From IMG/VR virus record IMGVR_UViG_3300027741_000029, positions 1-64,000 of that record: a stretch of DNA of 64,000 bases; one strand, given 5' to 3'. The notes below the pieces were generated by a model. That model did not search any database. It saw nothing but the letters and a program-made list of their open reading frames with translations, and had not been told where the DNA came from. Shown piece by piece: positions 19,509-52,548 of the stretch. Within the stretch, counting starts at the first letter, position 1, and every line of letters starts with the position of its first letter. This stretch comes from a virus. The translations under genes were made by a program, and so were the position numbers.

Positions 19509-20444
19509 ATGACAAAAAATTATCTTTGGGTTGAGAAATACCGTCCCAATAGCGTGACGGATTATGTGTGGCGTGATGCCGCACAAGAAGCACAGGTTCG
19601 TCAGTGGATTACTGATGCAACTATACCACACTTGCTATTCAGTGGCGGACCAGGCACAGGTAAAACTACCTTAGCAAAGGTTCTTATCCATGACTTGGGC
19701 GTGGATGACTACGATGTTTTACAGATCAATGCGTCCCGTGATAATGGCGTAGACTTCATTCGTGATAAGATTGAAGGATTTGTTTCTACTATGCCATTTG
19801 GTGAGTTTAAGATTGTGCTGCTTGATGAGGCAGATTACCTTTCACCAAGTGCACAGGCAGTTCTGCGTGGTTTGATGGAAACTTATAGCAGCAGTGCTAG
19901 GTTTATCATGACCTGTAACTATCCTAATAAGATTATTCCAGCATTGCATAGCCGCTGTCAAGGATTTCATATTGAACGCCTTGATAAGACCGAGTTTACT
20001 GCTCGTGCTGCCACAATTCTTGTTGAAGAAGCTGTTGACTTTGATTTGGATACGTTGGATGTTTATGTAACTGCAGCCTATCCCGACTTACGTAAGTGCA
20101 TCAACAGTTTGCAAAGTGCAAGCAACGGCGGATCATTAAGTTCAGCAACTAACGATGCACAGAGTAGCACAGATTATCGCATTGCCGCAGTTGATTTATT
20201 CAAGAGTGGCAAGGTTCGTGAAGCACGTAAACTACTATGCAATCAAGTTCGTGCTGATGAGATTGAAGAAGTATTTCGTTGGATGTATGATAACCTTGAG
20301 TTGTTTTCTACAACGGACGAAGGACAAGATCGTGCTATCGTTATCATTCGTAATGGGTTAGTTAATCATTCTATGGTTGCTGATGCTGAAATTAACCTAA
20401 GTGCTACATTGTGTGAGTTAGCGGAAATTAATGGAAATTCTTAG
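19509..20444 (+). CDS. clamp loader AAA+ subunit (T4 gp44/RFC-like)
   Basis: WVEKYRP, GGPGTGKTT, LDEAD, SRC. Confidence 0.95.
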   Translation: MTKNYLWVEKYRPNSVTDYVWRDAAQEAQVRQWITDATIPHLLFSGGPGTGKTTLAKVLIHDLGVDDYDVLQINASRDNGVDFIRDKIEGFVSTMPFGEFKIVLLDEADYLSPSAQAVLRGLMETYSSSARFIMTCNYPNKIIPALHSRCQGFHIERLDKTEFTARAATILVEEAVDFDLDTLDVYVTAAYPDLRKCINSLQSASNGGSLSSATNDAQSSTDYRIAAVDLFKSGKVREARKLLCNQVRADEIEEVFRWMYDNLELFSTTDEGQDRAIVIIRNGLVNHSMVADAEINLSATLCELAEINGNS

Positions 20445-24987: not shown

Positions 24988-27222
24988 ATGACACAGTTTA
25001 ATAGCAATAACGACCTTGAAAAAATTGTTAAAGTAGCCAAGCAATTTGCTGCTGAAAACCAACATCAATACTTTACAGTAGAACATCTACTGTATTCTAT
25101 GCTGCATGAGAAAGGATTCATGCGTGTATTACAATCTACGGGCGTGGATGTAGAAAATCTTGTTAAAGAGTTAGAAGATTATATCTTTGACAATTATCCA
25201 CAAAGCAATTCAGACAGTGAACCAAAGAAAACCCAAAGTCTTGAGCGAGTCTTTAACCGTGCGTTTACGCAAGTAATTCTACTTGGTCGCCAAACTATTC
25301 ATATCAGTGATCTTTATCTTTCAATTACTAAAGAAGCACATAGTCACGCAGCATATTATCTTAAGAAATATGGAGTAGAACCTGAAAAGGTTATTACAGC
25401 ATATAATAAAGAAAAGGGTAAGAAATCAATTGGGCAAGCTGCCAATGCGCTTGAAGAACATTGCACTAACCTAAATGAAATGGTTCGCAATGGCAAAATT
25501 GAAGCAGTAATTGGTCGCACCACTGAACTTGCTGATATGACACAAATTCTTGCTCGTAAGAATAAGTGCAATGTGTTGCTTGTAGGTGATTCTGGCGTGG
25601 GTAAGACTGCTATTGCCGAAGGTCTTGCATATAACATTGTTAATGGTGATGTTCCAAAGTTCCTTAAAGACCATGAAGTCTATAGTCTAAACATTGGTTC
25701 ACTATTGGCTGGCACAAAGTATCGTGGTGACTTTGAAGAAAAGTTACAAGAGATTATTTCGGCAGCTACTGAACTTGGCAATATCATTTTGTTTATTGAC
25801 GAAGCACATCAGATGCGTGGTGCTGGCAGTGGCAGCAACAGTGCGGTAGATTTCTCTAATATGTTGAAGCCAGCACTTGCTCGTGGTGACTTTAAGGTTA
25901 TTGCATCCACTACTTGGGAAGAATATACTCAGCAGTTTGAAAAAGACCGTGCGCTTATGCGTCGTTTCAACCGTGTTGCTATTGATGAACCAAGCATTGC
26001 GGATTGTAAAACTATTCTTCTTGGCATTAAAGAAAGTTATGAAACCTTCCACAATGTTAAGATTACCGATGCTGCTATTAGTGAAGCAGTAGAATTGAGT
26101 GCTCGTTATCAGGCAGACAAGAAACTGCCAGATAAGGCTATTGACCTTATTGATAGTGCCGCAGCATTACGCCGCACCAAGGCACGTGGCTCACGCACTA
26201 TTGATGTTGCACAAATTCGTCGTGAACTTTCTCGTATCACTGGTATTCCAGAAGCACAGTTAGGTGCAGAGAACACACAAAAGATTATGCCTAATATTGG
26301 TGCCGAGATCAAGGCAGTTGTATATAACCAAGATACCGCAGTTGACAAGGTGTTAGACCGTGTATGGGTATCACAGGCTGGTCTAAAGGCTGATAATAAG
26401 CCTGTTGGTTCATTCCTGTTCCTTGGACCTACTGGCACAGGTAAAACAGAACTTGCAAAGCAATTAGCAGATCGTTTAAGCATGAAACTGCTGCGCTTTG
26501 ATATGAGTGAATATCAAGAGCGTCATTCTATCTCACGCCTTATCGGTGCGCCGCCTGGCTATGTTGGATATGAAGATGCTAACCTTGCTGGTGGCTTGCT
26601 CATCAGTGAGATCGCCAAGAACCCACACTGCATCATTCTCTTTGACGAGATTGAAAAGGCACATCCTGATGTTTCACAGGTGTTGCTGCAAGTAATGGAC
26701 GAAGGTTTCATCACTGGAACCAATGGCAAGCGAGCAGATTGTCGCCAAAGTATCCTTATTATGACCAGTAATTTGGGTGCTGCTGATAGCGAACGCAATG
26801 TTATTGGTTTTGGTGGCGGAACAAATGTAGACGCAGTTGATGCTGCTGTTAAAGAATACTTCCGTCCAGAGTTCCGCAATCGTGTTGATGCGATTGTTAC
26901 ATTCAACAAACTTGATACGGCTACTATTCGTAAGGTTGCAGAGAAGTTCATTCGTGAACTTAATGAACAACTTGCCCTAAAGAATACATCAGTATCACTT
27001 ACTGATTCTGCGTGGAATTGGTTATGCAAAACGGGTTATACTCCAAGTCTTGGTGCCAGACCAATGCATCGCACAATTCACGAACATATTAAAGTTCCGC
27101 TAGCAAAGAAAATACTGTTTGACAAGACAGAAAATCATGCTAGTATTAAGGTAGACCTAAATGTTGACAAGTTGGAATTGGTAGCGCAAGATGACCGAGA
27201 TAGCAGAACTAACGCTGATTGA
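24988..27222 (+). CDS. clpA: ClpA-type AAA+ unfoldase
   Basis: two Walker A motifs (GDSGVGKT, GPTGTGKT), IGAPPGYVG, IGF loop (VIGFG), no ClpB middle domain. Confidence 0.9.
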   Translation: MTQFNSNNDLEKIVKVAKQFAAENQHQYFTVEHLLYSMLHEKGFMRVLQSTGVDVENLVKELEDYIFDNYPQSNSDSEPKKTQSLERVFNRAFTQVILLGRQTIHISDLYLSITKEAHSHAAYYLKKYGVEPEKVITAYNKEKGKKSIGQAANALEEHCTNLNEMVRNGKIEAVIGRTTELADMTQILARKNKCNVLLVGDSGVGKTAIAEGLAYNIVNGDVPKFLKDHEVYSLNIGSLLAGTKYRGDFEEKLQEIISAATELGNIILFIDEAHQMRGAGSGSNSAVDFSNMLKPALARGDFKVIASTTWEEYTQQFEKDRALMRRFNRVAIDEPSIADCKTILLGIKESYETFHNVKITDAAISEAVELSARYQADKKLPDKAIDLIDSAAALRRTKARGSRTIDVAQIRRELSRITGIPEAQLGAENTQKIMPNIGAEIKAVVYNQDTAVDKVLDRVWVSQAGLKADNKPVGSFLFLGPTGTGKTELAKQLADRLSMKLLRFDMSEYQERHSISRLIGAPPGYVGYEDANLAGGLLISEIAKNPHCIILFDEIEKAHPDVSQVLLQVMDEGFITGTNGKRADCRQSILIMTSNLGAADSERNVIGFGGGTNVDAVDAAVKEYFRPEFRNRVDAIVTFNKLDTATIRKVAEKFIRELNEQLALKNTSVSLTDSAWNWLCKTGYTPSLGARPMHRTIHEHIKVPLAKKILFDKTENHASIKVDLNVDKLELVAQDDRDSRTNAD

Positions 27223-30188: not shown

Positions 30189-30195
30189 ATATTTG

Positions 30196-31323
30196 ATGTT
30201 CATAAATCAGATAATAAACGAAGCACCAAAGGTTGGACGTGCTTTCCAACACGTAGAAGATTTAGTATTGATTAATGGCAGCAGCGGTGCGCAAAATGCC
30301 ATTTCTCGTCTCTCAACTCTTGCAAGTAATCCACAAATGGTAAGATGGAAATGGGACGGTAAGCCACAAGTATATTGGGGTCGTGAACCTGATGGCAAGT
30401 TCATCATGGTTGGTCACAATGGTTGGTTAAAACCAAATGAAAGTGGCAAGAGTCGTTCACCAGCAGAACTTGTAAAGTTTATTATGAGCACTGGCAATGT
30501 AGCACCTGATAAAGAAGATGAGCGTATGCGTTTTGCCAATGAATATGCCAGTCTATGGGCGTTATTTGAGGCAGCAACGCCGCAAGAATTTCGTGGTTAT
30601 GTATACGGTGATTTATTGTTTATGCGCCGTCCGCCACTAGAAAATAATTCATACACATTTACACCAAACAATGTAACATATAGTGTTCCTGTAACCACTG
30701 AACTTGGACAACGTATTTCGAAAGCAACAGCAGCAGTAGTAGGACATGCTTTCTTTCCACAGTTTGGCATGGGTGACGATCAACAACAACCTATTGATGA
30801 TTTTACCGCATTTAACAAGACACAAGGATTAATTGTGTTAGGTCCACGTTACGCAAGTCAACCTGTTAAAATTGACACAAAGAAACTACAAGACCTACAA
30901 AAGTATGTTGTAGCTAATAAAACTGCTATTGATAATTTCTTAAATGATGAACGACTTGCGGCAATGAAAATGGCAGGTTTCAAAGGTGTTCTATATAACT
31001 TTAATAACCAAATGGCAAAGAGTGGCAGAACCGCTGATCTTGCAAGTGAGTTTACTAATTGGTTAAGTAGCGGTAGCAAACAAAGTGCGCCGATGCAACA
31101 GAAGATTACGGATTGGATTGCGCAAAATCAAAAAGGTTTTATTGCAACCTTTGCGGTGCTAGAAAATCTACGCAGCGTTAAGAATCAAATTATTGATCAG
31201 TTGGATAGCGAAGGTGGCGATATCCAACAAACTACTAAGGGTCAAAAGGGTGGTGAAGGTTATGTCAACTATGGCGAACCTAATATTAAACTTGTGCCTC
31301 GCCATCGTTGGACACCAAATTAA
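30196..31323 (+). CDS. conserved T4-like phage protein with KxDG ligase-type motif and E-terminated leader
   Basis: MFINQIINE-AP; QHVED; KWDG; GGEGYV; TATAAATA 4 nt upstream. Confidence 0.7.
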   Translation: MFINQIINEAPKVGRAFQHVEDLVLINGSSGAQNAISRLSTLASNPQMVRWKWDGKPQVYWGREPDGKFIMVGHNGWLKPNESGKSRSPAELVKFIMSTGNVAPDKEDERMRFANEYASLWALFEAATPQEFRGYVYGDLLFMRRPPLENNSYTFTPNNVTYSVPVTTELGQRISKATAAVVGHAFFPQFGMGDDQQQPIDDFTAFNKTQGLIVLGPRYASQPVKIDTKKLQDLQKYVVANKTAIDNFLNDERLAAMKMAGFKGVLYNFNNQMAKSGRTADLASEFTNWLSSGSKQSAPMQQKITDWIAQNQKGFIATFAVLENLRSVKNQIIDQLDSEGGDIQQTTKGQKGGEGYVNYGEPNIKLVPRHRWTPN

Positions 31324-31366
31324 CCACACTCCAGTATACAGATAAATATTTTATCTGGATTGTATA

Positions 31367-34300
31367 ATGACCTTAAGCCACCGCACCATCTTCAATGAAG
31401 CACCAAATCCTCATGTTGCATTTGCATTTGGGAGATTAAATCCTCCACATTATGGTCACGAAGGTGTAATCAATACTCTTGCTAGCGTGGCAAAGAAAGG
31501 CAGTTGGGCGTTATTTTTAAGTAAAAGCCAAGATGCAAAAAAGAATCCGCTTACATATGATCAAAAGTTAAAGTGGGTTAAAACTTTATATCCACAAGTG
31601 CAAGGTCATCTTGTTGAAGACCCTAGTATTAAAACATTTCTTCAAGCAGCAGTATATTTGTATAATAAAGGGTTTCGTTCGGCTACCTTTGTTGCTGGTG
31701 AAGATGATATGGCAAGTATGCGTCCAGTGTTGGAGAGATACAATGGCGTAGAAAGCAGTCACGGCATGTATAAGTTTGAACCATTTTCATTCATGGAAAG
31801 TCCACGTTTAACAAGTGCTACCAATGCTCGCAAAGCAGTTACAGATAATGATCCAGAAGCATTTGAACGTGCTACAAGAGTAAAGCCAAACATTATGGTA
31901 GATGGCAAGAACCTATTTCAAACTGTTCGCATTGGCATGGGTCTTGGTGAAAGTATGGAAGAAAGTGTTATTACCGAGAGTGTTATTGCCAAAAACCTAT
32001 CAGTAGAACAACTTGCACACATTAGCGATAAGGCGTTGGACGATGCATATCATTATGGGTTATCTACACCAGGTGCTAACTTTGGTTGGTTAGCAAATAT
32101 TGAAAGTGCAACCGCTGCCAAGCGTATGATTGATAGTGGTATTACCGATGTAGATGCAATTGCCAACGCTATCCACGATGGTTGGAACAAGACCGCAATG
32201 GCTGATTATATGGGCAAGTTGCAGTTAGATGCGCCTACAATTCCCGATAAGAAAAAGAAGCGTTATGCACTTGCCCAACAAACTTATGGTCAGTTGCCAG
32301 AAGTAGAAAAAGAAAAAGACCGTGTAGTTGCTCGTGCTATGTTGAAGGCAATGGGTATCGTTACCGAAGCGCCAGGTATTGGTGGCGATTGGGGCGATAA
32401 TCCTAAACTTGTAAAGCGTGGTAGAGCACCGTATAAACCAAACATAGACAATACCTATTATGGTTCTACGCACGGAGTTGATCTTGACCTATACGGTTTA
32501 CCAAAGTATGAATTAGACGAAGACCTAACACCAGACCAATGGGCAGAGTTGCGCATTGCTGATCCAAAAGCCTATATGGGCAATAAGGATTATACTAATC
32601 GTCGTTGGTGGACTCTACAGTTTAAGAAGGCTCGTGCTGCTGCTCGTGAGAAGGGTGCGCAACGCTTTGAGTTCCCACCAGGTTCCAAGAACAGTTATAT
32701 GGTTGCACCTGACTTGGCAAACGAAGATACTGATCAACCAGATAGCAGCAACAATTCTGTTCGTAATCAGTTGAATGCTTGGATGGATCAAGACCAAAAA
32801 ATTAAAAACCCAACACAGCGGTTGTCACTGCAGAATAAGGCTTGGCAATATATTACCAAAAATATGGATGCCATCCTTGCTGACAAAGGTGCGGATGGTA
32901 AGGGAAGTTATCCTGCGGCACCATATGCGGCTTGGTTGCTAGTTCAACATATGGATGCTTATCCACAAAATCAAAGCAAGTTTCTACAACAACTGGAACA
33001 GTCAGGACTTGATCCTGCACCCAATCCTGGCGAAAAAGGAAAGTTACAGTTCTTAAAAGACCGTGTAGCAGTCAATAATGAAATTATAAAATTATGGAAT
33101 GCTGACAAGAATGCTTATAAAGATAAGAATGGACAATTACTTACTAATCCAACAGTAGATGTTCGTGATCCATCAAAGTTTGATGATGCTGATGAAAGTA
33201 AGATTGAAACATCTCGTAATGCGGCATTAAAAAATGCAGTAGAGGCTGGCAATACGCTACTTGTTGCCGCAGTAAATGCTACTAACGCACAAACACAACC
33301 ATCATACCAACAAGAAAGTGTAAGCGAAGGCAAAGTAACACTTTATACTGATCCAGATTATTTTGGTGCAGAAGTAGATGATAGTGGCTTTGATGCATTA
33401 CCGATCATCAATATTCCTACAAACAAACTTGTTGGGTTTGAACCCGATGATAAGATGAAATTACCAAAAGCCCAAGCAAATGTTGCGAAAATTATAGATG
33501 GTCTAGAGAAGAATGAAAATATACCACCTATTTTAGTTCGAAAATATAAGAGTGGTTATCAAGTATTAGATGGACATCATAGATTCTGGGCTTATAAAAC
33601 ACTTAAAAAAGATAGTATACCTGCACGATTAGTTCCTGATAGTGATATTGAAGAAATTAGCAAAAACAAAGTCAATGAAGCAGCAGATGGAACGCAACCT
33701 GAATATCTATGGCATGGTTCAAGAAATAAAATTCCTGTATTAAGCCCAAGACAAGCAGTTGATACTGGTGGTGCAACAGGTAGTAATAAAAATGCTATCT
33801 ATGCTACTGATAATAAAAATTTTGCTATTTTAATGGGTATGACAGAACCTAATAGTGATGTTGCTACTTTTCACACACCTGGCGAACCAATCCAAGGAGT
33901 TTTGTTTAGTGGTAAAATAAGACATGGGCAAAGTATGTATTTGCATATGTTGCCAACAAAAGATGCAGAAGGTAAAGATATTTTTATGCGTGGTTCTGCC
34001 GATGGCGAATATTATAGCAGACCAGATATTGAAGAATTAAAACCTTTAAAAATTATTGTTGTTCCAGTAGATGAACATTTGAATTTAATCAGAAAACCTA
34101 CAAAGAAAGATTTAGAATTACGACAATATTATCTTAATAGAGCAAACCAAAAACAAGAAAGCGTAAGCGAAGCCGCAGAAAAATCAACCAAAGCCGAGGC
34201 AAAGTATCAGGCAATGCCTCGCAATGGTCAACGCTGTGATCATTGCACTATGTGGCGACCACCACACGGTTGTTCGGCTGTTAGTGGCAAGATTGCGGCA

Positions 34301-37300
34301 AATGGTTGGTGTTCATATTATAAGCGCAGTCATCGTAAAGATTTAGAAGAAGACAGTGATAAAAGTGAAATCTTCAAATCATTAATTAAAAAATATCAAC
34401 TTGCTGGCAAAAGTGATGAAGAAGCACGAGACGCTGCTATAATTGATTTTGATAAAAGATTTGGTTGGCATAGAACGCTTACACCAGACCAATTAAAATC
34501 ATTAACGGGTGTAAAAAAATTAGAACTTGATGAGGCAGCATCACCAGTGTTGTTCCACTATACAGGTAGTTTGGGTGCAGCACTAAACATTCTTAAGAAC
34601 AATCAGTTTATGTTGAGCATTTCTACTGGTTCGGTAGAAGATCAGTATGCACCAAAAGGTTATGAGTATTTCCTATCTACAACACGCAGTAAGGCAGGCG
34701 GATATCATCAAATAGTTGGCGACACTGGCGTTATGTTTAACCTTGATGGCAATTGGTTTAATCGTCGTTATCCTGTGAAGGCAATTGATTATTGGGCAGG
34801 AATGTATAGAGGAGACCGTCATAGCGAAAGCGAAGACCGTGTATTCTCTCGTGAGCCATCTATGTCAGCAGATGCTATTACTGCTATTCATATCTTGTTA
34901 AAAGAAAAGGGTGAATATGCTAGTCCAAATACTCGTCAGTTGATGATTCTTGCCAAGAAGCGTGGCTTGCCAACCTATCTTTATAGTGATGAAAATGCTT
35001 GGAGATTACAAAATACTAAGCAAGCAGTACCAGTAAGTGGTGCTCAAGATTTACTGCGTGGTCAGAAGAAAACAGGTTATATCAGCAGCAGTAATTTTGG
35101 CAAGCGAATGTTAAGACCATGGTTAGAACTGATATTCAAGAAAAACCGCAGTGAGTTATCAAAGAAGGCAAATGAACTTCGCTATGGTTTAACATACTGG
35201 AACGGTGGTCAGTTTAGTGATGATCTTGGACTGCGTAATGAAATTTCAAATGCTCGTAAACCTGGTAGTAGTGGTTATCCAGAGGCTACTAAAATTATCG
35301 CAGCAATGCGCAAAATTGGTGCCAATAATGTAAAAGATTTACTAACATTCTTGCACAAGAAGTGGGATGCAGAAGCACAACAACCACTTAAAAGCGACAA
35401 TGATGCACAACGAGCAATTGCTAAAATCCGTGCCGATAGTGCTAAAAAAGAAAGTGTTGAAGAAGCACTTGATCCAAATGAAACACATGGTTGGATTTTG
35501 CCTAACCGCAAAGTTGTTTATGTTGAGAAGGAAGAACATCTGTCGTGGCTTTATAGTAATGACATTGATGGATATGAAGAAGCATTTACCCAAGGATATG
35601 TTCGTTTTGTAAATCTTCCCAATACATTTTTTCTAGAAGGAACATCAAGTGGTCTTAAAAAATTATACAGAGTATATGCAGCATCTGCACTATCAAGACC
35701 AAATATTGCCGTAGATGTTTATTATGGCAATAGAGGAAATGCAACTTCAAGTTATGATTTTACCATGCCACAAGAAAAAACAAAGTTTATGCGCTTACTT
35801 GGACCAAGTTCTGTTGGCGAACACGCTGGCAGCATTATTGGCACAGTAGGCGGCGGTAATGATTATCCTGACCGTCAGGTAGCCACTTTTCCATGGGACC
35901 GTTGGATACAGCCAGATACTGGCAACAGTAAATTAGCGTATGTTGATGACCTTGATGAAGTAAACATGAGTCCATCGGCTCTATCAAAGTTTGCTGCTAC
36001 TCCACAAGCACAGGCAATGACTATTGGTTTTGAAGCAGAAATGCTGGTGCCAGGTTTGGATTACGAAGATGAAGATGCAGACTATGGTGGTGTAAGCCGT
36101 GTGCAGTATGAGTTTCGCAGAGACCCAAGCAATTGGGATTTGAGTAAGGACGCTCCATTTCCAACTGAAAAAGATTGGGCTATACAAGTAGCAGCATGGG
36201 CAAGTAAAAGCGATATGCTTGATTCTGAGGATGTTGGCAATATTCGTGTTGAACTTCGTGATATAAACAAAAATTTTATCGCATATGTGGAAAAGAATAA
36301 AGATGTATCAACTGAAATAGTTAAACCAGAAAATTTAAAATGGATTGCTAATTACATTGACAAGAATACTGCGTGGATGTTAACTAAAAAAGAAATAAAA
36401 CAAGCAATCATAGATAACCCAAATGATTCCGATAGATATAGTGTTGTTTGGGACGCTCGCACAATCTTTATTGAAAAGATGCTAGAAGATTCAACACCAC
36501 AAGAATATGAAGAGTTATGGAAGGCTTATCTTAAAAGATATAATATTAAAAACATAAGTGATTGGTTTATGAGATGGGGACAACCACAAAATGATTATGT
36601 ATTTTACCCATACCTAAAAGGAACCCCACCACAAGACTCTACTGCGATAACCGTAAAAGAACTTGCCGTTAGTTGGAAGGCAGTGATTGGAGCAAATGTA
36701 AAGTATGGCGGTGGATATCATGGCATAAAGCGTGATGGCACTAGTTGGATTCTTGAGCCTGATAGCAGTATTAGTGGTGATGATAACGGTATTGAACTTA
36801 TATCACCGCCTATGCCGCTACAACAAGGCATGGCGGCACTTGATAAGTTCTTCCAATGGGCAGGTCAAAACGGATATTATGGCAATGAATCAACTGGATT
36901 CCATGTTGGTGTTAGCCTACCAGAAGAACTACAATCAAAAATTGACCCACTTAAAGTAGTAATGTTGCTTGGTGATCAATATGTGTTAGACCTATTTGAT
37001 CGTGGCAGCAATGAATATACCAAGAGCAGTCTTGGTGCAGTTCAAAAACTATTTAAATCACGCAGTAGTAATGTGCGACCAGAAGATTATGCTAAATTAT
37101 TGCGTAAAGATTTAGCAAGAACAGCACAAGCAATTGTCAATCGCACGATGAATGGCGGCAACAAGTATGTATCCGTTTATCTTAAATCTAATTATATTGA
37201 GTTCCGCAGTGCTGGCGGAAACTTTATGGAACACATAGACGATATCAAGAATACTGTGCTGCGTTATGTTCAGGTAATGGCAATTGCTGCTGATCCACAA

Positions 37301-37714
37301 GCATATCGTGAAGAATATGCCAAGAAACTTTATAAAGTGATTGCTAAAAATATTCCACGAGATGATGACCAACTGTCAAACTTTGCTATGTATGCCAGTG
37401 GTTTAATTGACCAAAATGTGTTGAAGATGCGTTTACAGAAGCGTCAGACCGATAAGGCAGATGCAGCAGCAAGAGCAGCATTTGTTGCTAGCACAAAGAT
37501 TTATAGAGTATGGCTTGGCGACCCACCATATGGTTCTAATCTCTCTGACCCAAAACGCTTTGCTACGCCAAGTGAAGCATATGCTTGGGCAAAATCTTAT
37601 GCAGTTCGTCTTTCAAGCACCTTTGATGCTAAAAGTTTATACTTAGAGCCAGATGATCATAGCATACCACCAATCGTGCTTGACCAACCTGCTTCTGGTC
37701 CATGGCTACAATAA
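31367..37714 (+). CDS. 2115-aa multidomain polyprotein: HIGH nucleotidyltransferase, RyR-like, DUF6624-like, ParB-like, ART-like x2, HiPIP, amidoligase
   Basis: motifs FGRLNPPHYGH, YGQLPEVEKEKDR, AWLLVQH, DGHHR, LWHGS, CxxC...GWC, LFHYT/STTRS/ESE, GFEAE...EPDSS...ELISPP. Confidence 0.85.
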   Translation: MTLSHRTIFNEAPNPHVAFAFGRLNPPHYGHEGVINTLASVAKKGSWALFLSKSQDAKKNPLTYDQKLKWVKTLYPQVQGHLVEDPSIKTFLQAAVYLYNKGFRSATFVAGEDDMASMRPVLERYNGVESSHGMYKFEPFSFMESPRLTSATNARKAVTDNDPEAFERATRVKPNIMVDGKNLFQTVRIGMGLGESMEESVITESVIAKNLSVEQLAHISDKALDDAYHYGLSTPGANFGWLANIESATAAKRMIDSGITDVDAIANAIHDGWNKTAMADYMGKLQLDAPTIPDKKKKRYALAQQTYGQLPEVEKEKDRVVARAMLKAMGIVTEAPGIGGDWGDNPKLVKRGRAPYKPNIDNTYYGSTHGVDLDLYGLPKYELDEDLTPDQWAELRIADPKAYMGNKDYTNRRWWTLQFKKARAAAREKGAQRFEFPPGSKNSYMVAPDLANEDTDQPDSSNNSVRNQLNAWMDQDQKIKNPTQRLSLQNKAWQYITKNMDAILADKGADGKGSYPAAPYAAWLLVQHMDAYPQNQSKFLQQLEQSGLDPAPNPGEKGKLQFLKDRVAVNNEIIKLWNADKNAYKDKNGQLLTNPTVDVRDPSKFDDADESKIETSRNAALKNAVEAGNTLLVAAVNATNAQTQPSYQQESVSEGKVTLYTDPDYFGAEVDDSGFDALPIINIPTNKLVGFEPDDKMKLPKAQANVAKIIDGLEKNENIPPILVRKYKSGYQVLDGHHRFWAYKTLKKDSIPARLVPDSDIEEISKNKVNEAADGTQPEYLWHGSRNKIPVLSPRQAVDTGGATGSNKNAIYATDNKNFAILMGMTEPNSDVATFHTPGEPIQGVLFSGKIRHGQSMYLHMLPTKDAEGKDIFMRGSADGEYYSRPDIEELKPLKIIVVPVDEHLNLIRKPTKKDLELRQYYLNRANQKQESVSEAAEKSTKAEAKYQAMPRNGQRCDHCTMWRPPHGCSAVSGKIAANGWCSYYKRSHRKDLEEDSDKSEIFKSLIKKYQLAGKSDEEARDAAIIDFDKRFGWHRTLTPDQLKSLTGVKKLELDEAASPVLFHYTGSLGAALNILKNNQFMLSISTGSVEDQYAPKGYEYFLSTTRSKAGGYHQIVGDTGVMFNLDGNWFNRRYPVKAIDYWAGMYRGDRHSESEDRVFSREPSMSADAITAIHILLKEKGEYASPNTRQLMILAKKRGLPTYLYSDENAWRLQNTKQAVPVSGAQDLLRGQKKTGYISSSNFGKRMLRPWLELIFKKNRSELSKKANELRYGLTYWNGGQFSDDLGLRNEISNARKPGSSGYPEATKIIAAMRKIGANNVKDLLTFLHKKWDAEAQQPLKSDNDAQRAIAKIRADSAKKESVEEALDPNETHGWILPNRKVVYVEKEEHLSWLYSNDIDGYEEAFTQGYVRFVNLPNTFFLEGTSSGLKKLYRVYAASALSRPNIAVDVYYGNRGNATSSYDFTMPQEKTKFMRLLGPSSVGEHAGSIIGTVGGGNDYPDRQVATFPWDRWIQPDTGNSKLAYVDDLDEVNMSPSALSKFAATPQAQAMTIGFEAEMLVPGLDYEDEDADYGGVSRVQYEFRRDPSNWDLSKDAPFPTEKDWAIQVAAWASKSDMLDSEDVGNIRVELRDINKNFIAYVEKNKDVSTEIVKPENLKWIANYIDKNTAWMLTKKEIKQAIIDNPNDSDRYSVVWDARTIFIEKMLEDSTPQEYEELWKAYLKRYNIKNISDWFMRWGQPQNDYVFYPYLKGTPPQDSTAITVKELAVSWKAVIGANVKYGGGYHGIKRDGTSWILEPDSSISGDDNGIELISPPMPLQQGMAALDKFFQWAGQNGYYGNESTGFHVGVSLPEELQSKIDPLKVVMLLGDQYVLDLFDRGSNEYTKSSLGAVQKLFKSRSSNVRPEDYAKLLRKDLARTAQAIVNRTMNGGNKYVSVYLKSNYIEFRSAGGNFMEHIDDIKNTVLRYVQVMAIAADPQAYREEYAKKLYKVIAKNIPRDDDQLSNFAMYASGLIDQNVLKMRLQKRQTDKADAAARAAFVASTKIYRVWLGDPPYGSNLSDPKRFATPSEAYAWAKSYAVRLSSTFDAKSLYLEPDDHSIPPIVLDQPASGPWLQ

Positions 37715-37730
37715 ACAGGTAAATATATAA

Positions 37731-40700
37731 ATGAAAAACAACAAAGACCTGATCCTTGAAGAAATCCTAAACGAAGTAAACATGAGTCCAGCAGCCCTTC
37801 GTGCGGCGGTGGCAAAGATTCCAAATGCAAAAGCAGGTTTAGAGTTTGAACTTATCGTCACTAATCTTGACGAAGAAGATGATGAAGATTATGATCCATA
37901 TGAGGATTTTGAATCCGAACCAGATTATGACCAAGATGAGCGTGTTTCTACCGCAAGTTTTGGTGCATTGTCGCAAGATGTTATGCAGTTCTTCGCTGGC
38001 GATCACAATAGTCGTCGTGAAGTAAATCGTGCGATTGATTTAATCCGTGAAGCATGGTATGAGTATTTGGATGGACCACTATGGGACACATGGGCAGGCG
38101 ACCGCATACAAGACTTTATTGACAAGCGTTATGGTCGTGATTATAAAAACCAGCAAGAACTGTTCAGTGAAATAGACAGAATTGATCCATATGAAGCGTT
38201 TAGAAAAGAATATTTTGAAGAATGGCGTGATAATATTGAAGATGATGATAATATTGACAGTTATCTTGAACAATTTTTAGAAGATACCTATGGTAACACT
38301 GCTATGAGTGGTTTGGCAAATGATAGCAGTCTTGGTCTATCTTGGCCAAACTGGACTGAACCTGATTATGATTACCGTCCAACTCGTTCTACGGTTGATG
38401 TAGGTGATTTCCGCCGTGCAACAGGTATAAGAACTATCAAGAGCGGCTCTTATCACGGCATTGCAAAGCCAAACGATGCATATGTTATTGAACCAGATAG
38501 CAGCCTATCACCTACTCGTGGCAAAGGCGGCGAAGGTTTAGAGTTTGTATCACCACCGCTAGATATTCCAACAATGATTGACCAAATCAATAAGGTCAAG
38601 GCGTGGGCAAAAGATGGCAATGCTTATACCAATGATAAAACTGGTTTGCATATGAATATTAGTATACCAGGTTATAAGTTAGACAAACTTGATTATGTTA
38701 AACTTGCACTATTTTTAGGTGACAAGTATATTTTAGAAAAGTTTGGTCGTCTTGGCAATTCTTATGCTCGCAGTGCTTTTGACCAGATTGCTTCATTCAT
38801 TAAACAAAATCCAGGCAAGGCAGACCAAGCCGTAGATGCTATGCGTAAGAACTTGAATACGGTTGCATCCAAACTTATTCATAATGGTTATACTGATAAA
38901 TTCACCTCTATCAATACAAAAGATAACCGTGTAGAGTTTCGTTCACCAGGCGGTAATTGGATTGATATGGATACTGATGAAGTAGTGAATACGCTGCTTC
39001 GTGTTGTATATGCTATGAACATTGCTCTGCATCCAGAAATGGAACGCAAAGAATATCAAAAGAAATTTGCAAAACTACTTACTGCTGATAAAAAAGACGA
39101 AACCGATACTATCAAGTATTTTACACAGTTTGCTACTGGAAATATGCCTCGCACAGCACTTGTAAGTTATATTAAAAATGCACAAAGCAAGCGTGATTTT
39201 GCCAAGAAAGCAAAAGCACCGCAACCAAATGTTGTTGGTGGTGACGATGATGATACACCGTATGTAGATTACGATGGGATTGGTGGTATTACATTTCAGA
39301 TTATCAGTCGTATAACTGGCAACCCATGGCAATCATTTGTAGTATCTCCAAGAATGACTTACAGTGATGTATATGATATTGCCACACGCATAGTGCGAGC
39401 AAGTGGTCGTTCATTTGACCTAGTAGCGTTAAGAGATACTCGTGATCGTGATGGTCAAGCAGATGATATTCTAACACGCCAACCATTATCAATTGGCGGT
39501 GATCGAACTGTATCATCTATTCAACCTATGTATGTTATCCGCACATCAAACAATCAAATGGCGGTTACACAGTTTCGTGCGCCAGATAATGAGCAAGCAC
39601 GAGACATTGCTACTCGTTTAACAAGAGAATATGGCTATCGTGATATTGATTGGTTCTTGTCCCTTGCAAACGATGATACGAATACACCAATACCTGGTGC
39701 AGGTACACAGGCACTACAATTGCCCCAAGCAGCAGCGCAACCACCTCGCCAATATTCACAAATAGAAATTGATCGTGGTTATGATATTGCGGGCAATGCT
39801 ATTCCAGCAAATGCAACCGCCACATCTTCTAACATTACTGCTACAAATGGCACAACATATAATATTTTGGATAGTGAAAGTCGTGTTGTTCATACATTTA
39901 ACGCTGCAAGTGTAACTGGTGCTCGTCGTTATGCTGTAAGTTATGCCGAGGAACATAATTTGGCAGCACCTTGGCAATTGGCAGAAGTTCCAAATAGAGA
40001 CGAAAGCCTTGAAGAAAGTATCCTAAACGAAATCAATATGAGTCCTACATCTCTTGAAAAGTTTGCCGATACACCATTTGCCAAGAGTATGAAGGTTGGT
40101 TTTGAAACCGAAATGTATATTCCTGGGCTTGGCGGTGAAGAAGGCGAAGAGGAAGAAGAAGAGGATATGGATGCAAACGAAGAGTTTCCAAGCAGCGCAT
40201 CCTATCGTGATCGTCAGCGTGATGTTATGAACTTCTTTACTGGTGGTAGTGATATCAATACCCGCAGTGATGTTGAAAGTGCATTAGAATCGTTCTATGA
40301 AGCATTTAGTGAATACCAATATGAAACCTATGATAATGAATTTGAAGGCACTGATGATTACAATGACGCAGTTCAAGAAGAATTAGGCGATACTCCTGCG
40401 GACGAAGCAAGTGAGCGAGAACTTGATGATGCCAAAGATAATGTTCGCACCAATTGGATGGAAGAAAACGAAGAATATACTTGGGGCAGATTCATAAGTC
40501 GCAATAGCATTGATGATATGTATGACTTTATGCGTTGGGTAAATCGCAATACTCGTGAATCGCTATCTTGGCCATATTATACATTTAGCAGCAGTAGAGA
40601 AGAACCAACAACAGACATTGGCGATGTTGTAGATGATTTTAGACGCAATACTGGTTATAAGGCACGAGCAAGCGGCGGTTATCACGGAGCAACTCGTGAT

Positions 40701-42395
40701 GAAACAACTTGGATATTTGAACCAGATAGTTCGCTAGATAGTCCAAATGATGATGGCGATGGCGGTATTGAACTTGTATCACCTCCAATGAACCTAGAAG
40801 ATGCGCTGGCTGCGTTAGAGAATGTATTCAGTTGGGCAAAAAGCAATGATTATTATACTAACCGCACAACTGGTTTCCATATTGGTGTTAGTATCCCTAA
40901 CCAAACCTTAGAAAACATTGACCATCTTAAATTGATTATGTTGCTTGGCGATGAGTATGTGCTTAAAGCATTTGGTCGTGCTGGTTCTCGTTGGACAAAG
41001 AGTAGTTTTGACCAAGCAAAGCGTGAAGTGCGTGGCAGAAGTGGCAGAAAGAATGTGCCAGCAATCCTTGATAAGATGCGTGGTGGATTGGAAGATATTG
41101 CCAAAAAAGAAATCAATAAACTGTTGGTTCCTCGTGGCGACCGTTATGTTAGCGTGAATATTAAGCCAAACTATATTGAGTTCCGCAGTGCTGGTGGCAA
41201 TTACTTTGAGCAATATGAAGAAATTCGCAAGACTATGTTGCGCTATGTTCGTGTTATGGGAGCAGCCGCTGATACCGAAGATGCTCGTCAAGAATATCAA
41301 AAGAAACTGTATAAGTTTGTAAGCGGTGGCATTAGTGAAAAAGATAACACGATGCAACTGTTTGCCAAATATACTGCTGGCGCTATTGACAAAGAACAAC
41401 TTGTAAAAGAATTACGCACTGCTCAAGAGCGTCGTAAGCCTGTTGCACCACTTGGCAGTGGTCCAGTTGATGGTTTCTTGGAAAATGAAGACGGCGAGCA
41501 AGTTGTAAAAATCAAGGGAACTAACCCATATGAAATGATTGAACTTGGTGTAAAGTTTGCTAACACTCGCCAAATGCCATTGAGCGATGTCAACCTACGT
41601 TATCCTGGTTATAGTATGGTTCGTGTTCAATATTATACTACACATAACACTGAAACAGATAGTATAACACTGGTTTATATACCTGGCGTTGATTTATACA
41701 GTGCATACAGCAGTGAAATAACAAAGATGGCTGTTCCTGTTGCAGAAAAGCACTGGGGCGTAAGTAAATTACCAATAGAACGTTATGCTGTGCGAGTGTT
41801 AGATGAGTATTCACTACAATATATGCGTGATGAAATGTATTTTATTACATCTCGTGGTATAGACCGTGCACCATCACTGCCACCAACAGCACAATCAACA
41901 GATGCTGCGCCTGGCAATAATCAAACTGCTCAACGATATATTTTAAAATATACAGATAACGGCGAAGAAGTTTATAGATTTGGTGCGTCTACTCAACGAG
42001 ATGCAATAGACCGTGCCAATAGTTTCCAACGATCATATAGCAGTGTAATGCGCTGGGGCGGCACAATTGGTAATATTCGTGGTATTGCGCTATATTCAAT
42101 TGCGCCAAATACTGATGAACAAGAATTGTTCTATATGGGACCAGGCGAGGCTATTGTAAATCAACCTGCTTCTGGAACGCCAGATTGGGCAGATGATCCT
42201 AACATTGCTGTAACCAATAATACACCTAGAATTAGAAATCCTGGTGGCAGTGGCACGTATGCATTGTATAGTGGCGATGGTGAGCAGTTAACGGATGCAG
42301 CAGCATTCAATAACTATCAAAATGCGACAAGTTATTTTACAATTAATTATAGTAGTTCGTTGGGAACTGGTTGGACCGTAAGACAACTATCGTAA
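37731..42395 (+). CDS. 1554-aa protein with two amidoligase (COOH-NH2 ligase type 2-like) domains
   Basis: GLEFE/GFETE, EPDSS, E(F/L)VSPP, TGxH, EFRSxGG, each present twice. Confidence 0.85.
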   Translation: MKNNKDLILEEILNEVNMSPAALRAAVAKIPNAKAGLEFELIVTNLDEEDDEDYDPYEDFESEPDYDQDERVSTASFGALSQDVMQFFAGDHNSRREVNRAIDLIREAWYEYLDGPLWDTWAGDRIQDFIDKRYGRDYKNQQELFSEIDRIDPYEAFRKEYFEEWRDNIEDDDNIDSYLEQFLEDTYGNTAMSGLANDSSLGLSWPNWTEPDYDYRPTRSTVDVGDFRRATGIRTIKSGSYHGIAKPNDAYVIEPDSSLSPTRGKGGEGLEFVSPPLDIPTMIDQINKVKAWAKDGNAYTNDKTGLHMNISIPGYKLDKLDYVKLALFLGDKYILEKFGRLGNSYARSAFDQIASFIKQNPGKADQAVDAMRKNLNTVASKLIHNGYTDKFTSINTKDNRVEFRSPGGNWIDMDTDEVVNTLLRVVYAMNIALHPEMERKEYQKKFAKLLTADKKDETDTIKYFTQFATGNMPRTALVSYIKNAQSKRDFAKKAKAPQPNVVGGDDDDTPYVDYDGIGGITFQIISRITGNPWQSFVVSPRMTYSDVYDIATRIVRASGRSFDLVALRDTRDRDGQADDILTRQPLSIGGDRTVSSIQPMYVIRTSNNQMAVTQFRAPDNEQARDIATRLTREYGYRDIDWFLSLANDDTNTPIPGAGTQALQLPQAAAQPPRQYSQIEIDRGYDIAGNAIPANATATSSNITATNGTTYNILDSESRVVHTFNAASVTGARRYAVSYAEEHNLAAPWQLAEVPNRDESLEESILNEINMSPTSLEKFADTPFAKSMKVGFETEMYIPGLGGEEGEEEEEEDMDANEEFPSSASYRDRQRDVMNFFTGGSDINTRSDVESALESFYEAFSEYQYETYDNEFEGTDDYNDAVQEELGDTPADEASERELDDAKDNVRTNWMEENEEYTWGRFISRNSIDDMYDFMRWVNRNTRESLSWPYYTFSSSREEPTTDIGDVVDDFRRNTGYKARASGGYHGATRDETTWIFEPDSSLDSPNDDGDGGIELVSPPMNLEDALAALENVFSWAKSNDYYTNRTTGFHIGVSIPNQTLENIDHLKLIMLLGDEYVLKAFGRAGSRWTKSSFDQAKREVRGRSGRKNVPAILDKMRGGLEDIAKKEINKLLVPRGDRYVSVNIKPNYIEFRSAGGNYFEQYEEIRKTMLRYVRVMGAAADTEDARQEYQKKLYKFVSGGISEKDNTMQLFAKYTAGAIDKEQLVKELRTAQERRKPVAPLGSGPVDGFLENEDGEQVVKIKGTNPYEMIELGVKFANTRQMPLSDVNLRYPGYSMVRVQYYTTHNTETDSITLVYIPGVDLYSAYSSEITKMAVPVAEKHWGVSKLPIERYAVRVLDEYSLQYMRDEMYFITSRGIDRAPSLPPTAQSTDAAPGNNQTAQRYILKYTDNGEEVYRFGASTQRDAIDRANSFQRSYSSVMRWGGTIGNIRGIALYSIAPNTDEQELFYMGPGEAIVNQPASGTPDWADDPNIAVTNNTPRIRNPGGSGTYALYSGDGEQLTDAAAFNNYQNATSYFTINYSSSLGTGWTVRQLS

Positions 42396-42464
42396 TTAAG
42401 ACTTGACTTATCCACAGGATATGATACACTTAAATTGTGTTCAATAATAGGGATAAATATTAGT

Positions 42465-42974
42465 ATGGCGTACCAAAAGTTCAGAGTTTACCTAGATATG
42501 GATGGCGTTCTTGCTGATTTTTTTGGTGAGTGGGCAAGATTAGATGGCAAAAGCCATTATAAAGATATTGATAATCCAGAAGCAAAACTTGACCTTGTGC
42601 GCCAACATCCTACATTTTGGGTAGATTTGCCGATGCTTCCTCATGCTCGTCAACTTGTTCAGCATGTTATGAAAGAGTTCGGTGAATATTATATTTGTTC
42701 AACACCGCTTACTGGCGATAGTCGCAGTGAAAGTGGTAAACTTGCATGGGTTCAAATGCATTTGAGCAGCATGCCACCAAAGCGTGTTATCCTAACACAT
42801 AATAAAGCAGAGTTTGCTACTGCTAATGGAACACCAGGTATTCTTGTAGATGATTATGGCAAAAATGTTAACGCTTGGCAAAGTGCAGGCGGCATTGCTA
42901 TCAAGTATGAAGATCAGAATTTCGCTAAAGTTCAGCAATTGCTCTCTAGTTACGCAAAATTAGGGAGAGATTAA
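42465..42974 (+). CDS. 5'(3')-deoxyribonucleotidase, HAD superfamily
   Basis: YLDMDGVLADF, ILVDD; ATG 5 nt after TAAATA. Confidence 0.85.
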   Translation: MAYQKFRVYLDMDGVLADFFGEWARLDGKSHYKDIDNPEAKLDLVRQHPTFWVDLPMLPHARQLVQHVMKEFGEYYICSTPLTGDSRSESGKLAWVQMHLSSMPPKRVILTHNKAEFATANGTPGILVDDYGKNVNAWQSAGGIAIKYEDQNFAKVQQLLSSYAKLGRD

Positions 42975-48739: not shown

Positions 48740-49372
48740 ATGTTATTAACAGAATTATTTGACCTTGATGAAGCCGCTGGTGTAGGTTTAGTTCGATTTA
48801 CTGGTAATACAATATTTGAAAGATTTGAACAGCATAAGAAAGATGCTTTGAAAATTCGTGACAATAGAAAATTTTATAATGCTATAAACAAGCATGGAGT
48901 TGATGTATGGAATATAGAATTATTAGAATCGGTTGAATCCGCAGAAATTGCCAAACAAAAAGAAATAGAATTTATAGAAAAATTTGATACCTATTATAAT
49001 GGATATAATTCTACAAAAGGTGGCGATGGCAATAATGGCATAATTATGTCAGAAGAGTCAAATGCAAAAAGAAGTAAAGCATTAAAAGGTATTGCTAAAA
49101 ATTATACAAGAATGCATGGTAAAATTCATTCAGAAGAATCTAAAAAGAAAATATCTGAATCACATAAGGGTAAGAAAAAACCTTGGGTAAAATGGGAAAA
49201 ATCTATTATAGAGAAACGGGCGATGACTCGTCGTGGCTTAACAAAGGAACAATTTGATTCCATCCATTTGTTAAAAAATGAAGGTTTAACAGCAAGAGAA
49301 ATATCAACCAACCTAAATTTATCACGGGATATGGTTAAAAAATGGTCCCTTAAAGAATGGGACTTCATGTAA
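48740..49372 (+). mobile_element. free-standing GIY-YIG/NUMOD3-type homing endonuclease gene with a borrowed N-terminus
   Basis: ERFEQH, KQKEIEFI, GYNSTKGG, MHGKIHSEESKKKISESHKG; GIY and YIG motifs absent. Confidence 0.8.
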
Positions 49373-49426
49373 TGTTATTAACTGAATTATTTGACCTTGA
49401 TGAAGCCGCTGGTGTAGGTGTAGTTC
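48740..49426 (+). repeat. 55-bp direct repeat (48740-48794 and 49372-49426, 2 mismatches)
   Basis: atgttattaac(a/t)gaattatttgaccttgatgaagccgctggtgtaggt(t/g)tagttc. Confidence 0.95.
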
Positions 49427-49581
49427 CTCCTACTAAGAAGGCTGCAAAAGACCCTCGTTATGCTAATGCGCTGACAGTTGATATTCATCCAGGCGAAACA
49501 CAAAAGCAAGCAGCAAAATTTGGCAATAAGACCGATAAAATTGGTCGCCCACCTATTATGAGTCCAAGTGGTAAGGTTTAA
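49372..49581 (+). CDS. small protein with E-terminated leader
   Basis: MLLTELFDLDE-AAGVGVVPP; TAATG coupling. Confidence 0.8.
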   Translation: MLLTELFDLDEAAGVGVVPPTKKAAKDPRYANALTVDIHPGETQKQAAKFGNKTDKIGRPPIMSPSGKV

Positions 49582-50672
49582 TGACTCAATTTACTGATAC
49601 ATTCTGTCGGCGTGCATTTACAGATTTAGTATTTGATTCTGGCATAATTAAACCTTGTTGTTATTTTTTATCAAATTTTACTAAAAAATTTCAAGATATT
49701 GAATCATCAAATCTGCAAGTTAGACAATATATCAAAGATAATAAATGGCACCCAGGCTGTGATAACTGTAAAAAAACCGAAAAAGACGGCAATAAAAAAA
49801 GTCATAGGTTGAATCACAAATATGATGATTTTGATTATGAATTATTTTATGAGAATAAATTTTCATTAAAAAATTTAGAGATTAGAGTTGACAATAATTG
49901 CAATATTGCTTGCATTACTTGTTTTAGTGATAGTAGTTCTCGTTGGTCTGCTGAATTAAAAAGAATGGGCGAACATGACCCATGTAAAAATAAAGTAAAC
50001 ACTGATATAGACAAACTTTTGACTTATGAAATTTGGAAAAATGTCGAAAAACTTACGATATATGGTGGTGAACCAATGTATAGTAAAAAAGTAGAAAAAA
50101 TACTATCATGGGCTGTAGAAAATAATTTAAGTGAAAAGATTGATGTACATTTTTTCAGCAATGGTACTATTATAAACAAAAATATTATTGATAAATTTGA
50201 AAGATTCAAATCAATTAATATTGGTTTTAGTATTGACGGAACATTTGACAGATACCATATTATAAGATGGCCAGCCAATTGGAATGAAACATTGGAAAAT
50301 TTTAATAAATTAAAATTAATGCCAAATGTTAATCTGTATATTATCTACACCTATAGTGTATTAAATGCTTACAATACCAAAGAAGATTTAGAAATTTTAA
50401 ATGAGTATTTTAATTGTCCTATTGTTCCTAATTTATTAATAAATCCATCATATTATGCCGCAAGAAATTTGCCAGAATCAATAAAGGAAAAATTAATAGA
50501 TCACTTAATTACGGTTCCTGAATTTTCATATCTCATAGCTGAATTACAACAACCAAGCAATGAGAAAGAATTAAAACAAGCTATCGAACGTGTTAAAAAA
50601 TTAGATAATTTTAGAAATACTGATAGTAGTATACTATTTGCATCAGAAGTATGGTCAATAGCCGATAAATAA
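49581..50672 (+). CDS. radical SAM protein with N-terminal SPASM/twitch-like Cys cluster
   Basis: CNIACITC, YGGEPM, SIDG; IKPCC...GCDNC. Confidence 0.85.
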   Translation: MTQFTDTFCRRAFTDLVFDSGIIKPCCYFLSNFTKKFQDIESSNLQVRQYIKDNKWHPGCDNCKKTEKDGNKKSHRLNHKYDDFDYELFYENKFSLKNLEIRVDNNCNIACITCFSDSSSRWSAELKRMGEHDPCKNKVNTDIDKLLTYEIWKNVEKLTIYGGEPMYSKKVEKILSWAVENNLSEKIDVHFFSNGTIINKNIIDKFERFKSINIGFSIDGTFDRYHIIRWPANWNETLENFNKLKLMPNVNLYIIYTYSVLNAYNTKEDLEILNEYFNCPIVPNLLINPSYYAARNLPESIKEKLIDHLITVPEFSYLIAELQQPSNEKELKQAIERVKKLDNFRNTDSSILFASEVWSIADK

Positions 50673-50676
50673 TCTT

Positions 50677-52278: not shown

Positions 52279-52548
52279 ATGGCAACCAGAAACTTTAGTG
52301 CAGAGGAACGCACGAAACTTAAACAATTGATGAGCGAAAGTATTTCAGTAATGACTGAGGTTGAAGTACTAACAGGCGGTCTTAACGATACCATTAGTGC
52401 AATTGCAGAAGAAATGAACATCAAGCCAAATCTACTTAAGAAGGCAATCAAGATGGCACAGAAGCGTGACTTTGATAAGGCTCGTGAAGACCTTGACATC
52501 ATTGAAAGCATTCTTAACAGCACAAACAACTTGGATAGCGAACAATAA
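52279..52548 (+). CDS. dsbA: T4 DsbA/GapR-like dsDNA-binding protein
   Basis: helical 89 aa; AIAEEMNIKPNLLKKAIKMAQK; upstream of the polymerase. Confidence 0.7.
   Translation: MATRNFSAEERTKLKQLMSESISVMTEVEVLTGGLNDTISAIAEEMNIKPNLLKKAIKMAQKRDFDKAREDLDIIESILNSTNNLDSEQ

Follow-up and report, generated by a model that had tools for sequence, protein, structure and literature searches.

A multi-module 2115-residue protein of a T4-related phage as candidate capsid-targeted cargo with putative prohead-protease joints

The stretch analyzed here (the window; 64,000 nucleotides, positions 1 to 64,000 of the IMG/VR virus record IMGVR_UViG_3300027741_000029) stems from a large uncultured T4-related phage, encodes a family B DNA polymerase, a clamp loader and a baseplate-like protein, and harbors at 31367..37714 on the plus strand a gene that remains open over 2115 codons. 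A first-pass annotation of this DNA had described the product as a polyprotein in which one targeting leader is followed by modules separated by short hydrophobic-x-E motifs, and had proposed the prohead protease as the enzyme that cuts them. The open reading frame (ORF) and its motifs proved to be as described. Each of the 13 junction motifs is present once, with its Glu codon ending at exactly the base reported for it, and 12 of them carry L, I, V or F at the third position before the presumed cut (P3, counting the Glu as P1), the exception being LANE. The leader, the modules and the other features discussed below are located in Table 1.

Table 1. Positions in the window of the leader, the modules and other features discussed in the text
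Feature	Positions	Strand	Remark
N-terminal leader, 11 residues, ends IFNE	31367..31399	+	candidate capsid-targeting sequence
Module 1, aa 12-204	31400..31978	+	HIGH-motif nucleotidyltransferase
Module 2, aa 205-334	31979..32368	+	RyR-like, helical
Module 3, aa 335-385	32369..32521	+	small, starts APGIG
Module 4, aa 386-453	32522..32725	+	small, no family match, ends LANE
Module 5, aa 454-654	32726..33328	+	helical
Module 6, aa 655-771	33329..33679	+	ParB-N-like
Module 7, aa 772-935	33680..34171	+	conserved, invariant WHGS
Module 8, aa 936-995	34172..34351	+	HiPIP-like, four Cys
Module 9, aa 996-1056	34352..34534	+	small, helical, no family match
Module 10, aa 1057-1366	34535..35464	+	ADP-ribosyltransferase fold, nearest Tpt1/KptA and DarT
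Module 11, aa 1367-1485	35465..35821	+	no Pfam match
Module 12, aa 1486-1531	35822..35959	+	short, starts HAGSI
Module 13, aa 1532-2115 and stop codon	35960..37714	+	amidoligase (COOH-NH2 ligase type 2), starts VNMSP
DUF6267 protein	30193..31323	+	leader ends IINE, then AP; leader kept in 11 variants at related loci
1554-aa protein, two amidoligase modules	37731..42395	+	16 nt after the stop codon of the 2115-residue gene
ATAAATA, T4-late-promoter-like	31342..31348	+	25 nt before the start codon of the 2115-residue gene; putative promoter
Family B DNA polymerase	52548..55208		window gene
Clamp loader	19509..20444		window gene
Baseplate-like giant protein	10837..14721		window gene

Profile searches supported several of the domain labels previously assigned to these modules and weakened others. 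The nucleotidyltransferase label of module 1 is backed by a PHROG cytidyltransferase match (2.5e-33) and a weak Pfam CTP_transf_like match, and the isolated module 8 matches Pfam HIPIP (PF01355) with 28.4 bits, above the cut-off of 22, its four Cys residues being invariant in 15/15 sequences. The amidoligase label also stands, with Amidoligase_2 at 20.7 bits against a cut-off of 22 for module 13 itself and clear matches in relatives and in the neighboring gene. The RyR-like and ParB-like labels are weak, as both lie under the Pfam cut-offs (19.8 bits against 27.4 for RyR in module 2; 22.7 against 26.3 for ParB_N in module 6, accompanied by a PHROG ParB-like match at 3.5e-6), and the DUF6624-like label of module 5 could not be verified, since this family was not listed in Pfam for the isolated module at E values up to 1. 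No Pfam family was matched by module 3.

Two modules had been labeled as ADP-ribosyltransferase (ART)-like, of which the second, module 10, is supported as an ART fold by its structure model. In a VIA-align comparison the model matched Tpt1 with Z 10.8 (root-mean-square deviation 2.4 over 109 aligned residues) and DarT with Z 10.1, 9.2 and 9.0, with four DarT entries at 8.5-10.1, followed by many ART toxins at Z 4-6; this module is also the sole confident part of its model, with predicted local distance difference test (pLDDT) values of 60-84. The ART label of module 7, by contrast with that of module 10, could not be verified: the alignment reveals invariant residues including WHGS, which is only a hint of ART, neither a Pfam nor a PDB profile match was obtained, its Atlas neighbors bear DUF6886 in a minority of members, and its structure model is unusable, with pLDDT under 35. 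The AlphaFold models were built from shallow alignments and are poor in general (mean pLDDT 46 for aa 772-1531 and 44 for aa 205-771; for module 5, 60-78 in the AF2 model over aa 462-626 only), giving only rough support to boundaries near 453/464, 627/654, 1056 and 1366; they are too poor to identify most modules, aa 1057-1366 being the one part with a usable fold match.

A search of 5.8 billion proteins yielded 63 relatives of the 2115-residue protein, each 1163-3224 aa long and encoded on contigs of up to 355 kb, among which the module subsets differ. The junctions had been chosen by eye, and this choice was replaced by a breakpoint test in which the starts and ends of BLAST homology segments against the 63 relatives (n=320) were compared with the 13 junction sites. 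Forty-six percent of the breakpoints lie within 5 aa of a junction, as compared with 6.7% for random sets of 13 positions and 20% (maximum 41%, 2000 draws) for random sets of 13 drawn from the 40 hydrophobic-x-E sites that the protein contains, so that the enrichment at module edges suggested as a check by the first-pass annotation was indeed found. Its caveat that the motif is common by chance was equally justified: 40 sites amount to 1.9 per 100 aa, an ordinary density, which rules out a global excess of the motif and leaves just the positions as special.

Breakpoint clusters fall within a few residues of all 12 testable junctions (204, 334, 385, 453, 654, 771, 935, 995, 1056, 1366, 1485 and 1531), including 42 breakpoints at aa 186-226, at the end of module 1, and 14 at aa 453, at the end of module 4; additional breakpoints near aa 2028 reflect the variable C-terminal tail of module 13. 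Modules 5, 7 and 11 are exactly absent in some relatives (module 7 in most), with one junction motif remaining, such that aa 453 joins straight to 654 in P0004 and others, and aa 1366 straight to 1482 in P0004, P0008 and P0011. Module 9 is bounded by breakpoints at aa 995-1001 and 1051-1053 and is replaced by other sequence in relatives, three different modules come after module 4, and the module 2 type also occurs inside other multi-module proteins (P0061, P0063 and P0064). The starts of individual modules are likewise preceded by unrelated sequence: at least five different upstream linkers, each ending in hydrophobic-x-E, for APGIG of module 3; about ten, each ending in Glu, for AAEKS of module 8; and many for HAGSI of module 12, most of which end in Glu, a few lacking the P3 hydrophobic residue. 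These comparisons indicate that the protein is a chain of 13 independently shuffling modules.

The conservation of the joints was evaluated by anchoring each alignment in the downstream module and projecting back without requiring a match at the Glu, which avoids the bias of alignments that extend just through a matching Glu. Among the 149 unique upstream octamers thus obtained, P1 is Glu in 124 (83%), P3 is L, I, V, M or F in 112, and both hold together in 110 (74%), against a background of 1.8% per residue in the same proteins; most contexts that fail the motif are register shifts of 1-3 residues. P2 and P4-P8 are highly variable, and most P1' residues belong to the set Ala, Val, Ser, His and Gly. 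Because P1 and P3 are kept amid varied P2 and P4-P8, the joint pattern is conserved at the protein level and not as a DNA string. The amidoligase start is preceded by L/I/V-x-E in 35/35 unique contexts, and the module 6 type is found in 33 internal copies in library proteins, nearly all after V/L/M-A-E, while LANE (aa 453), having Ala at P3, is the weakest of the sites. In a separate set of metagenomic phage proteins (P0067-P0212), almost every module follows one stereotyped linker, K-Q-G-V-A-E-G, which stands ahead of ParB-like and RyR-like modules and of the types corresponding to aa 454-654 and 772-935, and which may represent a variant of this joint confined to one lineage.

The clear reshuffling of modules at the joints would also be expected of a cytoplasmic multi-enzyme fusion that is never packaged, its joints being flexible linkers or short stretches of homology that facilitate shuffling, with no proteolysis. 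Such a fusion would further agree with the distance of the gene from head genes and with the 5'-nucleotidase module, which in the window stands on its own as a gene that lacks a leader and has a sigma-70-like promoter. The joints themselves speak against it, as a protein pattern of L/I/V, any P2 and Glu with no shared DNA string makes a poor recombination substrate, and generic linkers give no reason for an invariant Glu at the last position. We consider this explanation decidedly unlikely, also in view of the leaders, which are described below and would be pointless on a cytoplasmic enzyme.

Relatives retain an N-terminal leader, 5-11 residues long, that closes with hydrophobic-x-E and precedes an Ala. 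The 11-residue leader of the window protein (IFNE, then AP) matches the leader of T4 IPII and IPIII at P4, P3 and P1, and the gene directly upstream (30193..31323) starts with a near-identical one. An exhaustive HMMER search with residues 205-1366 as query (E up to 0.001) retrieved 2440 library proteins, from which module 10 homologues were counted in clusters below 50% identity. Fifty-three of them are stand-alone or first-module forms, so the single genes with leaders whose existence in relatives the first-pass annotation had proposed to check do occur. Their leaders measure 8-22 residues (exactly 9 in 29/53), end in Glu in 50/53 and have L, I, V, M or F at P3 in 52/53; in those of at least 9 aa (n=42), P3 is only L or I. 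The resulting consensus reads Met, basic, x, x, acidic, I/F/L, L/I, x, Glu and agrees with the leader of T4 IPII and IPIII, as read from NC_000866, at the acidic P5, P4, P3 and the P1 Glu. Among 29 related viral loci, stand-alone module copies were not found except as truncated genes; they come only from the large protein library. Cultured jumbo phages also encode stand-alone homologues with leaders ending in L-x-E at the homologous point (SCTP-2 gp503 and the Atu_ph07 amidoligase, which is encoded two genes away from the portal), and the annotations of the homologues in Lu11 and Dickeya phage JA13 carry no virion information.

The same boundary is thus occupied by a leader in one genome and by a linker in another. 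The window genes at 46336, 49357 and 50677, which have leaders of their own, appear in relatives as internal modules after hydrophobic-x-E with identical first mature residues, and relatives without the fused amidoligase end near aa 1526 in a basic tail, with the leader of the next gene ending in ILNE before VNMSP. In one protein (P0082) the internal linker is a complete fossil leader, Met included. Taken across these loci, leaders and linkers are interchangeable. Internal copies of module 10 have L/I-x-E ahead of them in 26/26 cases, whereas P4 is relaxed. In T4, mutational data assign leader residues 4 and 7 to targeting and residues 8 and 10 to processing (PMC9026906), and the retention of P3 and P1 with a relaxed P4 in the internal linkers fits this split.

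An arrangement of this kind could also leave the protein packaged through its leader and yet largely intact, with only the leader and perhaps a few exposed joints cut, the motifs being decaying scars of fusion and the chain acting in the host as one polyvalent protein. Precedents are available in the whole delivery of the N4 virion RNA polymerase, ArdC and TraC1 (PMC5512222), and in SPN3US, where about 80% of head proteins are uncut and cuts mostly take N-terminal propeptides (PMC10052503); fusion scars do exist, as in P0082, and the structure models are too poor to judge linker exposure. Scars should nevertheless decay, and yet P1 Glu and P3 L/I/V persist in 74-83% of the 149 contexts while their neighbors vary, and P3 and P1 are kept in all 26 internal copies of module 10. 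A relaxed P4 combined with kept processing positions is the pattern expected under selection for cutting. Largely intact cargo is hence, in our judgment, unlikely.

A protease with suitable specificity is encoded in the lineage. Peptidase_S77, the family of T4 gp21, was detected in two IMG/VR contigs that encode homologues of the 2115-residue protein (91.9 and 90.3 bits, E 2e-27), and related contigs also encode a portal and a major head protein, both of them T4-like. In contig G002, where the flanks of the S77 gene are annotated, the portal, major head protein and a scaffold-like protein stand beside it. Over its 365 aa, this scaffold-like protein contains 27 motif sites (7.4 per 100), a density comparable with the 8.6 per 100 aa of T4 gp22, which is degraded by gp21, and set apart from the 1.3-2.6 of head proteins and from the similarly low value of the 2115-residue protein. 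In the major head protein, L-A-E stands just ahead of the conserved core; the corresponding region of T4 gp23 contains L-T-E, its known maturation site. The related S77 protease begins with L-I-E at residue 7, similar to the L-I-E-9 noted in T4 gp21 (PMC9026906). Contig G002 (L032 524-5209, minus strand) further encodes a 1561-aa protein without a PHROG match directly after the major head protein gene.

Cutting by another protease was also weighed, whether a host enzyme, an embedded peptidase or a Clp-type machine employing the ClpA/ClpB-like AAA+ ATPase encoded 4 kb upstream (24988..27222). Embedded peptidases have been proposed for polyvalent proteins (PMC5512222); in the 2115-residue protein, however, Pfam and PHROG scans of the whole sequence and of single modules detected no peptidase family. 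The Clp-like gene lacks a protease domain and has an early-type promoter, and the motif, which matches gp21-type specificity and the T4 leader, is unlike a Clp degron. We regard this alternative as very improbable.

Head cargo with cut joints is favored because the joints coincide with module boundaries, P1 and P3 are kept, T4-type leaders occur on single genes and the lineage possesses an S77 protease. We therefore lean toward the reading that the 2115-residue protein is capsid-targeted cargo, most junctions of which are predicted to be cleaved by the prohead protease acting in trans; that all 13 sites are cut appears doubtful. The comparative evidence strongly favors the predicted single-leader polyprotein of the first-pass annotation, of which the complete cutting is the part held less firmly. 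Under this model, the gene would be expressed late in infection and the N-terminal leader would carry the entire chain into the prohead core, where the protease would cut after the junction Glu residues, removing the leader and releasing as many as 13 products, between 46 and 584 residues long, among them the nucleotidyltransferase, the ParB-like and HiPIP-like proteins, the ART-fold enzyme and the amidoligase. The larger products would remain in the head and go with the DNA into the next host, and very small ones may leak out as T4 scaffold peptides do. The linkers would be relics of leader-bearing genes fused to an upstream gene, in which the processing residues were kept and the targeting residue was partly lost.

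Several observations weigh against this interpretation. Head genes are absent within the window, so that the protease is known just from relatives at 45-62% identity, and the gene sits amid replication and host-interaction genes, outside a head module, although internal-protein genes are likewise distant from head genes in T4. Some relatives have no N-terminal leader and open directly with the first strand of the enzyme. A hydrophobic P3 is missing from LANE and, at aa 1485 and 654, from a minority of the contexts, and the 149 contexts are not phylogenetically independent. Models with pLDDT of 44-46 cannot show whether the linkers are exposed, and packaging, cutting and injection are predictions from sequence for this phage and its close relatives alike.

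Around the gene, leader-like N-termini are concentrated in one region, being present in 6/17 genes at 29.7-51 kb against 4/67 elsewhere in the window (Fisher p 0.004). Leaders ending in hydrophobic-x-E before Ala occur within 29703-51030 in the genes at 30193, 31367, 37731, 44525, 46336, 47258, 48740, 49357 and 50677, and this cluster of about 20 kb looks like a whole candidate head-cargo region. In the 1554-aa protein that follows the 2115-residue gene, the first amidoligase comes after a 15-residue leader and the second after an internal linker, both of which end in ILNE and lead into (V/I)NMSP; together with module 13, three paralogous ligases are thereby placed in a row. The NUMOD3-containing, homing-endonuclease-like gene at 48740..49372 and the small ORF overlapping it (49357..49581) have the same leader start, the leader of the small ORF beginning in related loci at a Met six residues into the window ORF, which suggests that the endonuclease gene may have duplicated the start of its neighbor. 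Two small genes with leaders (49357-51030) flank a radical SAM gene (49581..50672), and in a related locus these two are fused directly through a linker ending in VNE; the radical SAM gene may have been inserted into what was once a cargo fusion, or else the fusion may have followed its loss.

The separate 5'-nucleotidase gene (NT5C, 42435-42974), described above as lacking a leader, corresponds in at least 20 relatives to a C-terminal polyprotein module after a hydrophobic-x-E linker. The ClpA/ClpB-like protein is a double AAA+ protein (Clp_N, AAA, AAA_lid_9, AAA_2, ClpB_D2-small) with a sigma-70-like promoter, for which the PHROG name "ATP-dependent protease" is misleading.

With regard to promoters, ATAAATA, a shortened T4 late-promoter core, occurs in 14 copies in the window against 29 expected, with 13/14 on the plus strand, and often stands 10-30 nt before start codons (for example at 15836, 15849, 30185, 31342, 47737, 50665 and 58905), which suggests that it may be the late-promoter core in this group of phages. 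Of the exact octamer of T4 late promoters, TATAAATA, there are just two copies, and the one at 30184 is too near a start codon and was ruled out as its promoter. The shorter ATAAATA looks more meaningful than the exact octamer.

The window contains no tRNA genes, and no near-identical DNA was found in the phage collection. When the DNA polymerase was compared, the nearest cultured relatives were the jumbo phages Phosso, Vibrio 2.275.O, Atu_ph07, GAP32 and Serratia BF, of 350-490 kb (45-49% identity).

A broader proposal follows the same lines, namely that T4-related phages use a portable two-part code composed of a prohead address and a Glu cut motif, in which fusion decays the address and keeps the cut signal, so that polyproteins could be reshuffled, loaded by a single address and cut inside the capsid; on this generalization we are evenly divided. 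Such a code would be widespread, because 2440 library proteins match the middle part of the 2115-residue protein. Were the joints cut, one late gene would supply the next host with a dozen ready-made proteins just as the DNA enters, including an ART-fold enzyme, a nucleotidyltransferase, a ParB-like protein, an iron-sulfur module and an amidoligase. It would represent a genuine polyprotein expression strategy in double-stranded DNA (dsDNA) tailed phages, account for the way in which giant phages put together, and quickly rearrange, injected anti-defense or take-over sets, and join two hitherto separate fields, the T4 capsid-targeting/gp21 system and polyvalent proteins. The sequence rule of a leader plus L/I/V-x-E joints would furthermore predict virion cargo and mature ends in uncultured phages and could guide multi-protein packaging in T4-based delivery vectors.

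Polyvalent proteins combine 2-15 disparate domains, with an embedded peptidase in about a third of them that is not obligatory (PMC5512222). The 2115-residue protein presents the features by which they are recognized, having 13 disparate modules and conflict-type domains (ART, ParB-like and nucleotidyltransferase), and resembles them in uniting many unrelated domains, in its mosaicism and in its predicted travel with DNA, whereas the embedded peptidase present in some of their members was not found here. According to the first-pass annotation, the polyvalent proteins described to date are usually regarded as intact fusions, which requires correction, since processing was already proposed by Iyer et al. 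(2017, PMC5512222), who invoked release by embedded zincin-like or assemblin-like peptidases and drew an analogy with RNA-virus polyproteins. Linkers, a T4-type leader and a prohead protease that cuts in trans do not appear in their account, whose domains do not include amidoligase (PMC5512222). Searches of open-access papers turned up no work linking capsid targeting to polyvalent proteins.

In T4, IPI, IPII, IPIII and Alt carry a short leader with acidic P5, hydrophobic P4 and P3 and P1 Glu, as in this lineage, and a review already raised the idea that, by means of this leader, T4-like phages can bring a variety of proteins into their heads (PMC9026906). Alt is itself an ART enzyme, and an ART-fold module is likewise part of the 2115-residue protein. 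T4 cargo nevertheless consists of single proteins with one leader each (Alt having also a C-terminal cut), whereas here 13 modules share one leader; worn leader copies at each internal joint would allow one gene to yield many products. In phiKZ, 201phi2-1 and SPN3US, gp21-related proteases cut head and ejection proteins after Glu, with several cuts in some substrates (PMC10052503, PMC5694885). The motif there is A/S/G-x-E and the cuts mostly remove or chop N-terminal propeptides, no chain of enzymes from one precursor having been described. Eukaryotic RNA-virus polyproteins likewise place several functional units in one ORF with a protease motif at each junction. The proposed system would differ from them in belonging to a dsDNA tailed phage and in employing a capsid-maturation protease in trans, presumably within the prohead, in the service of co-packaging rather than of genome-wide expression.

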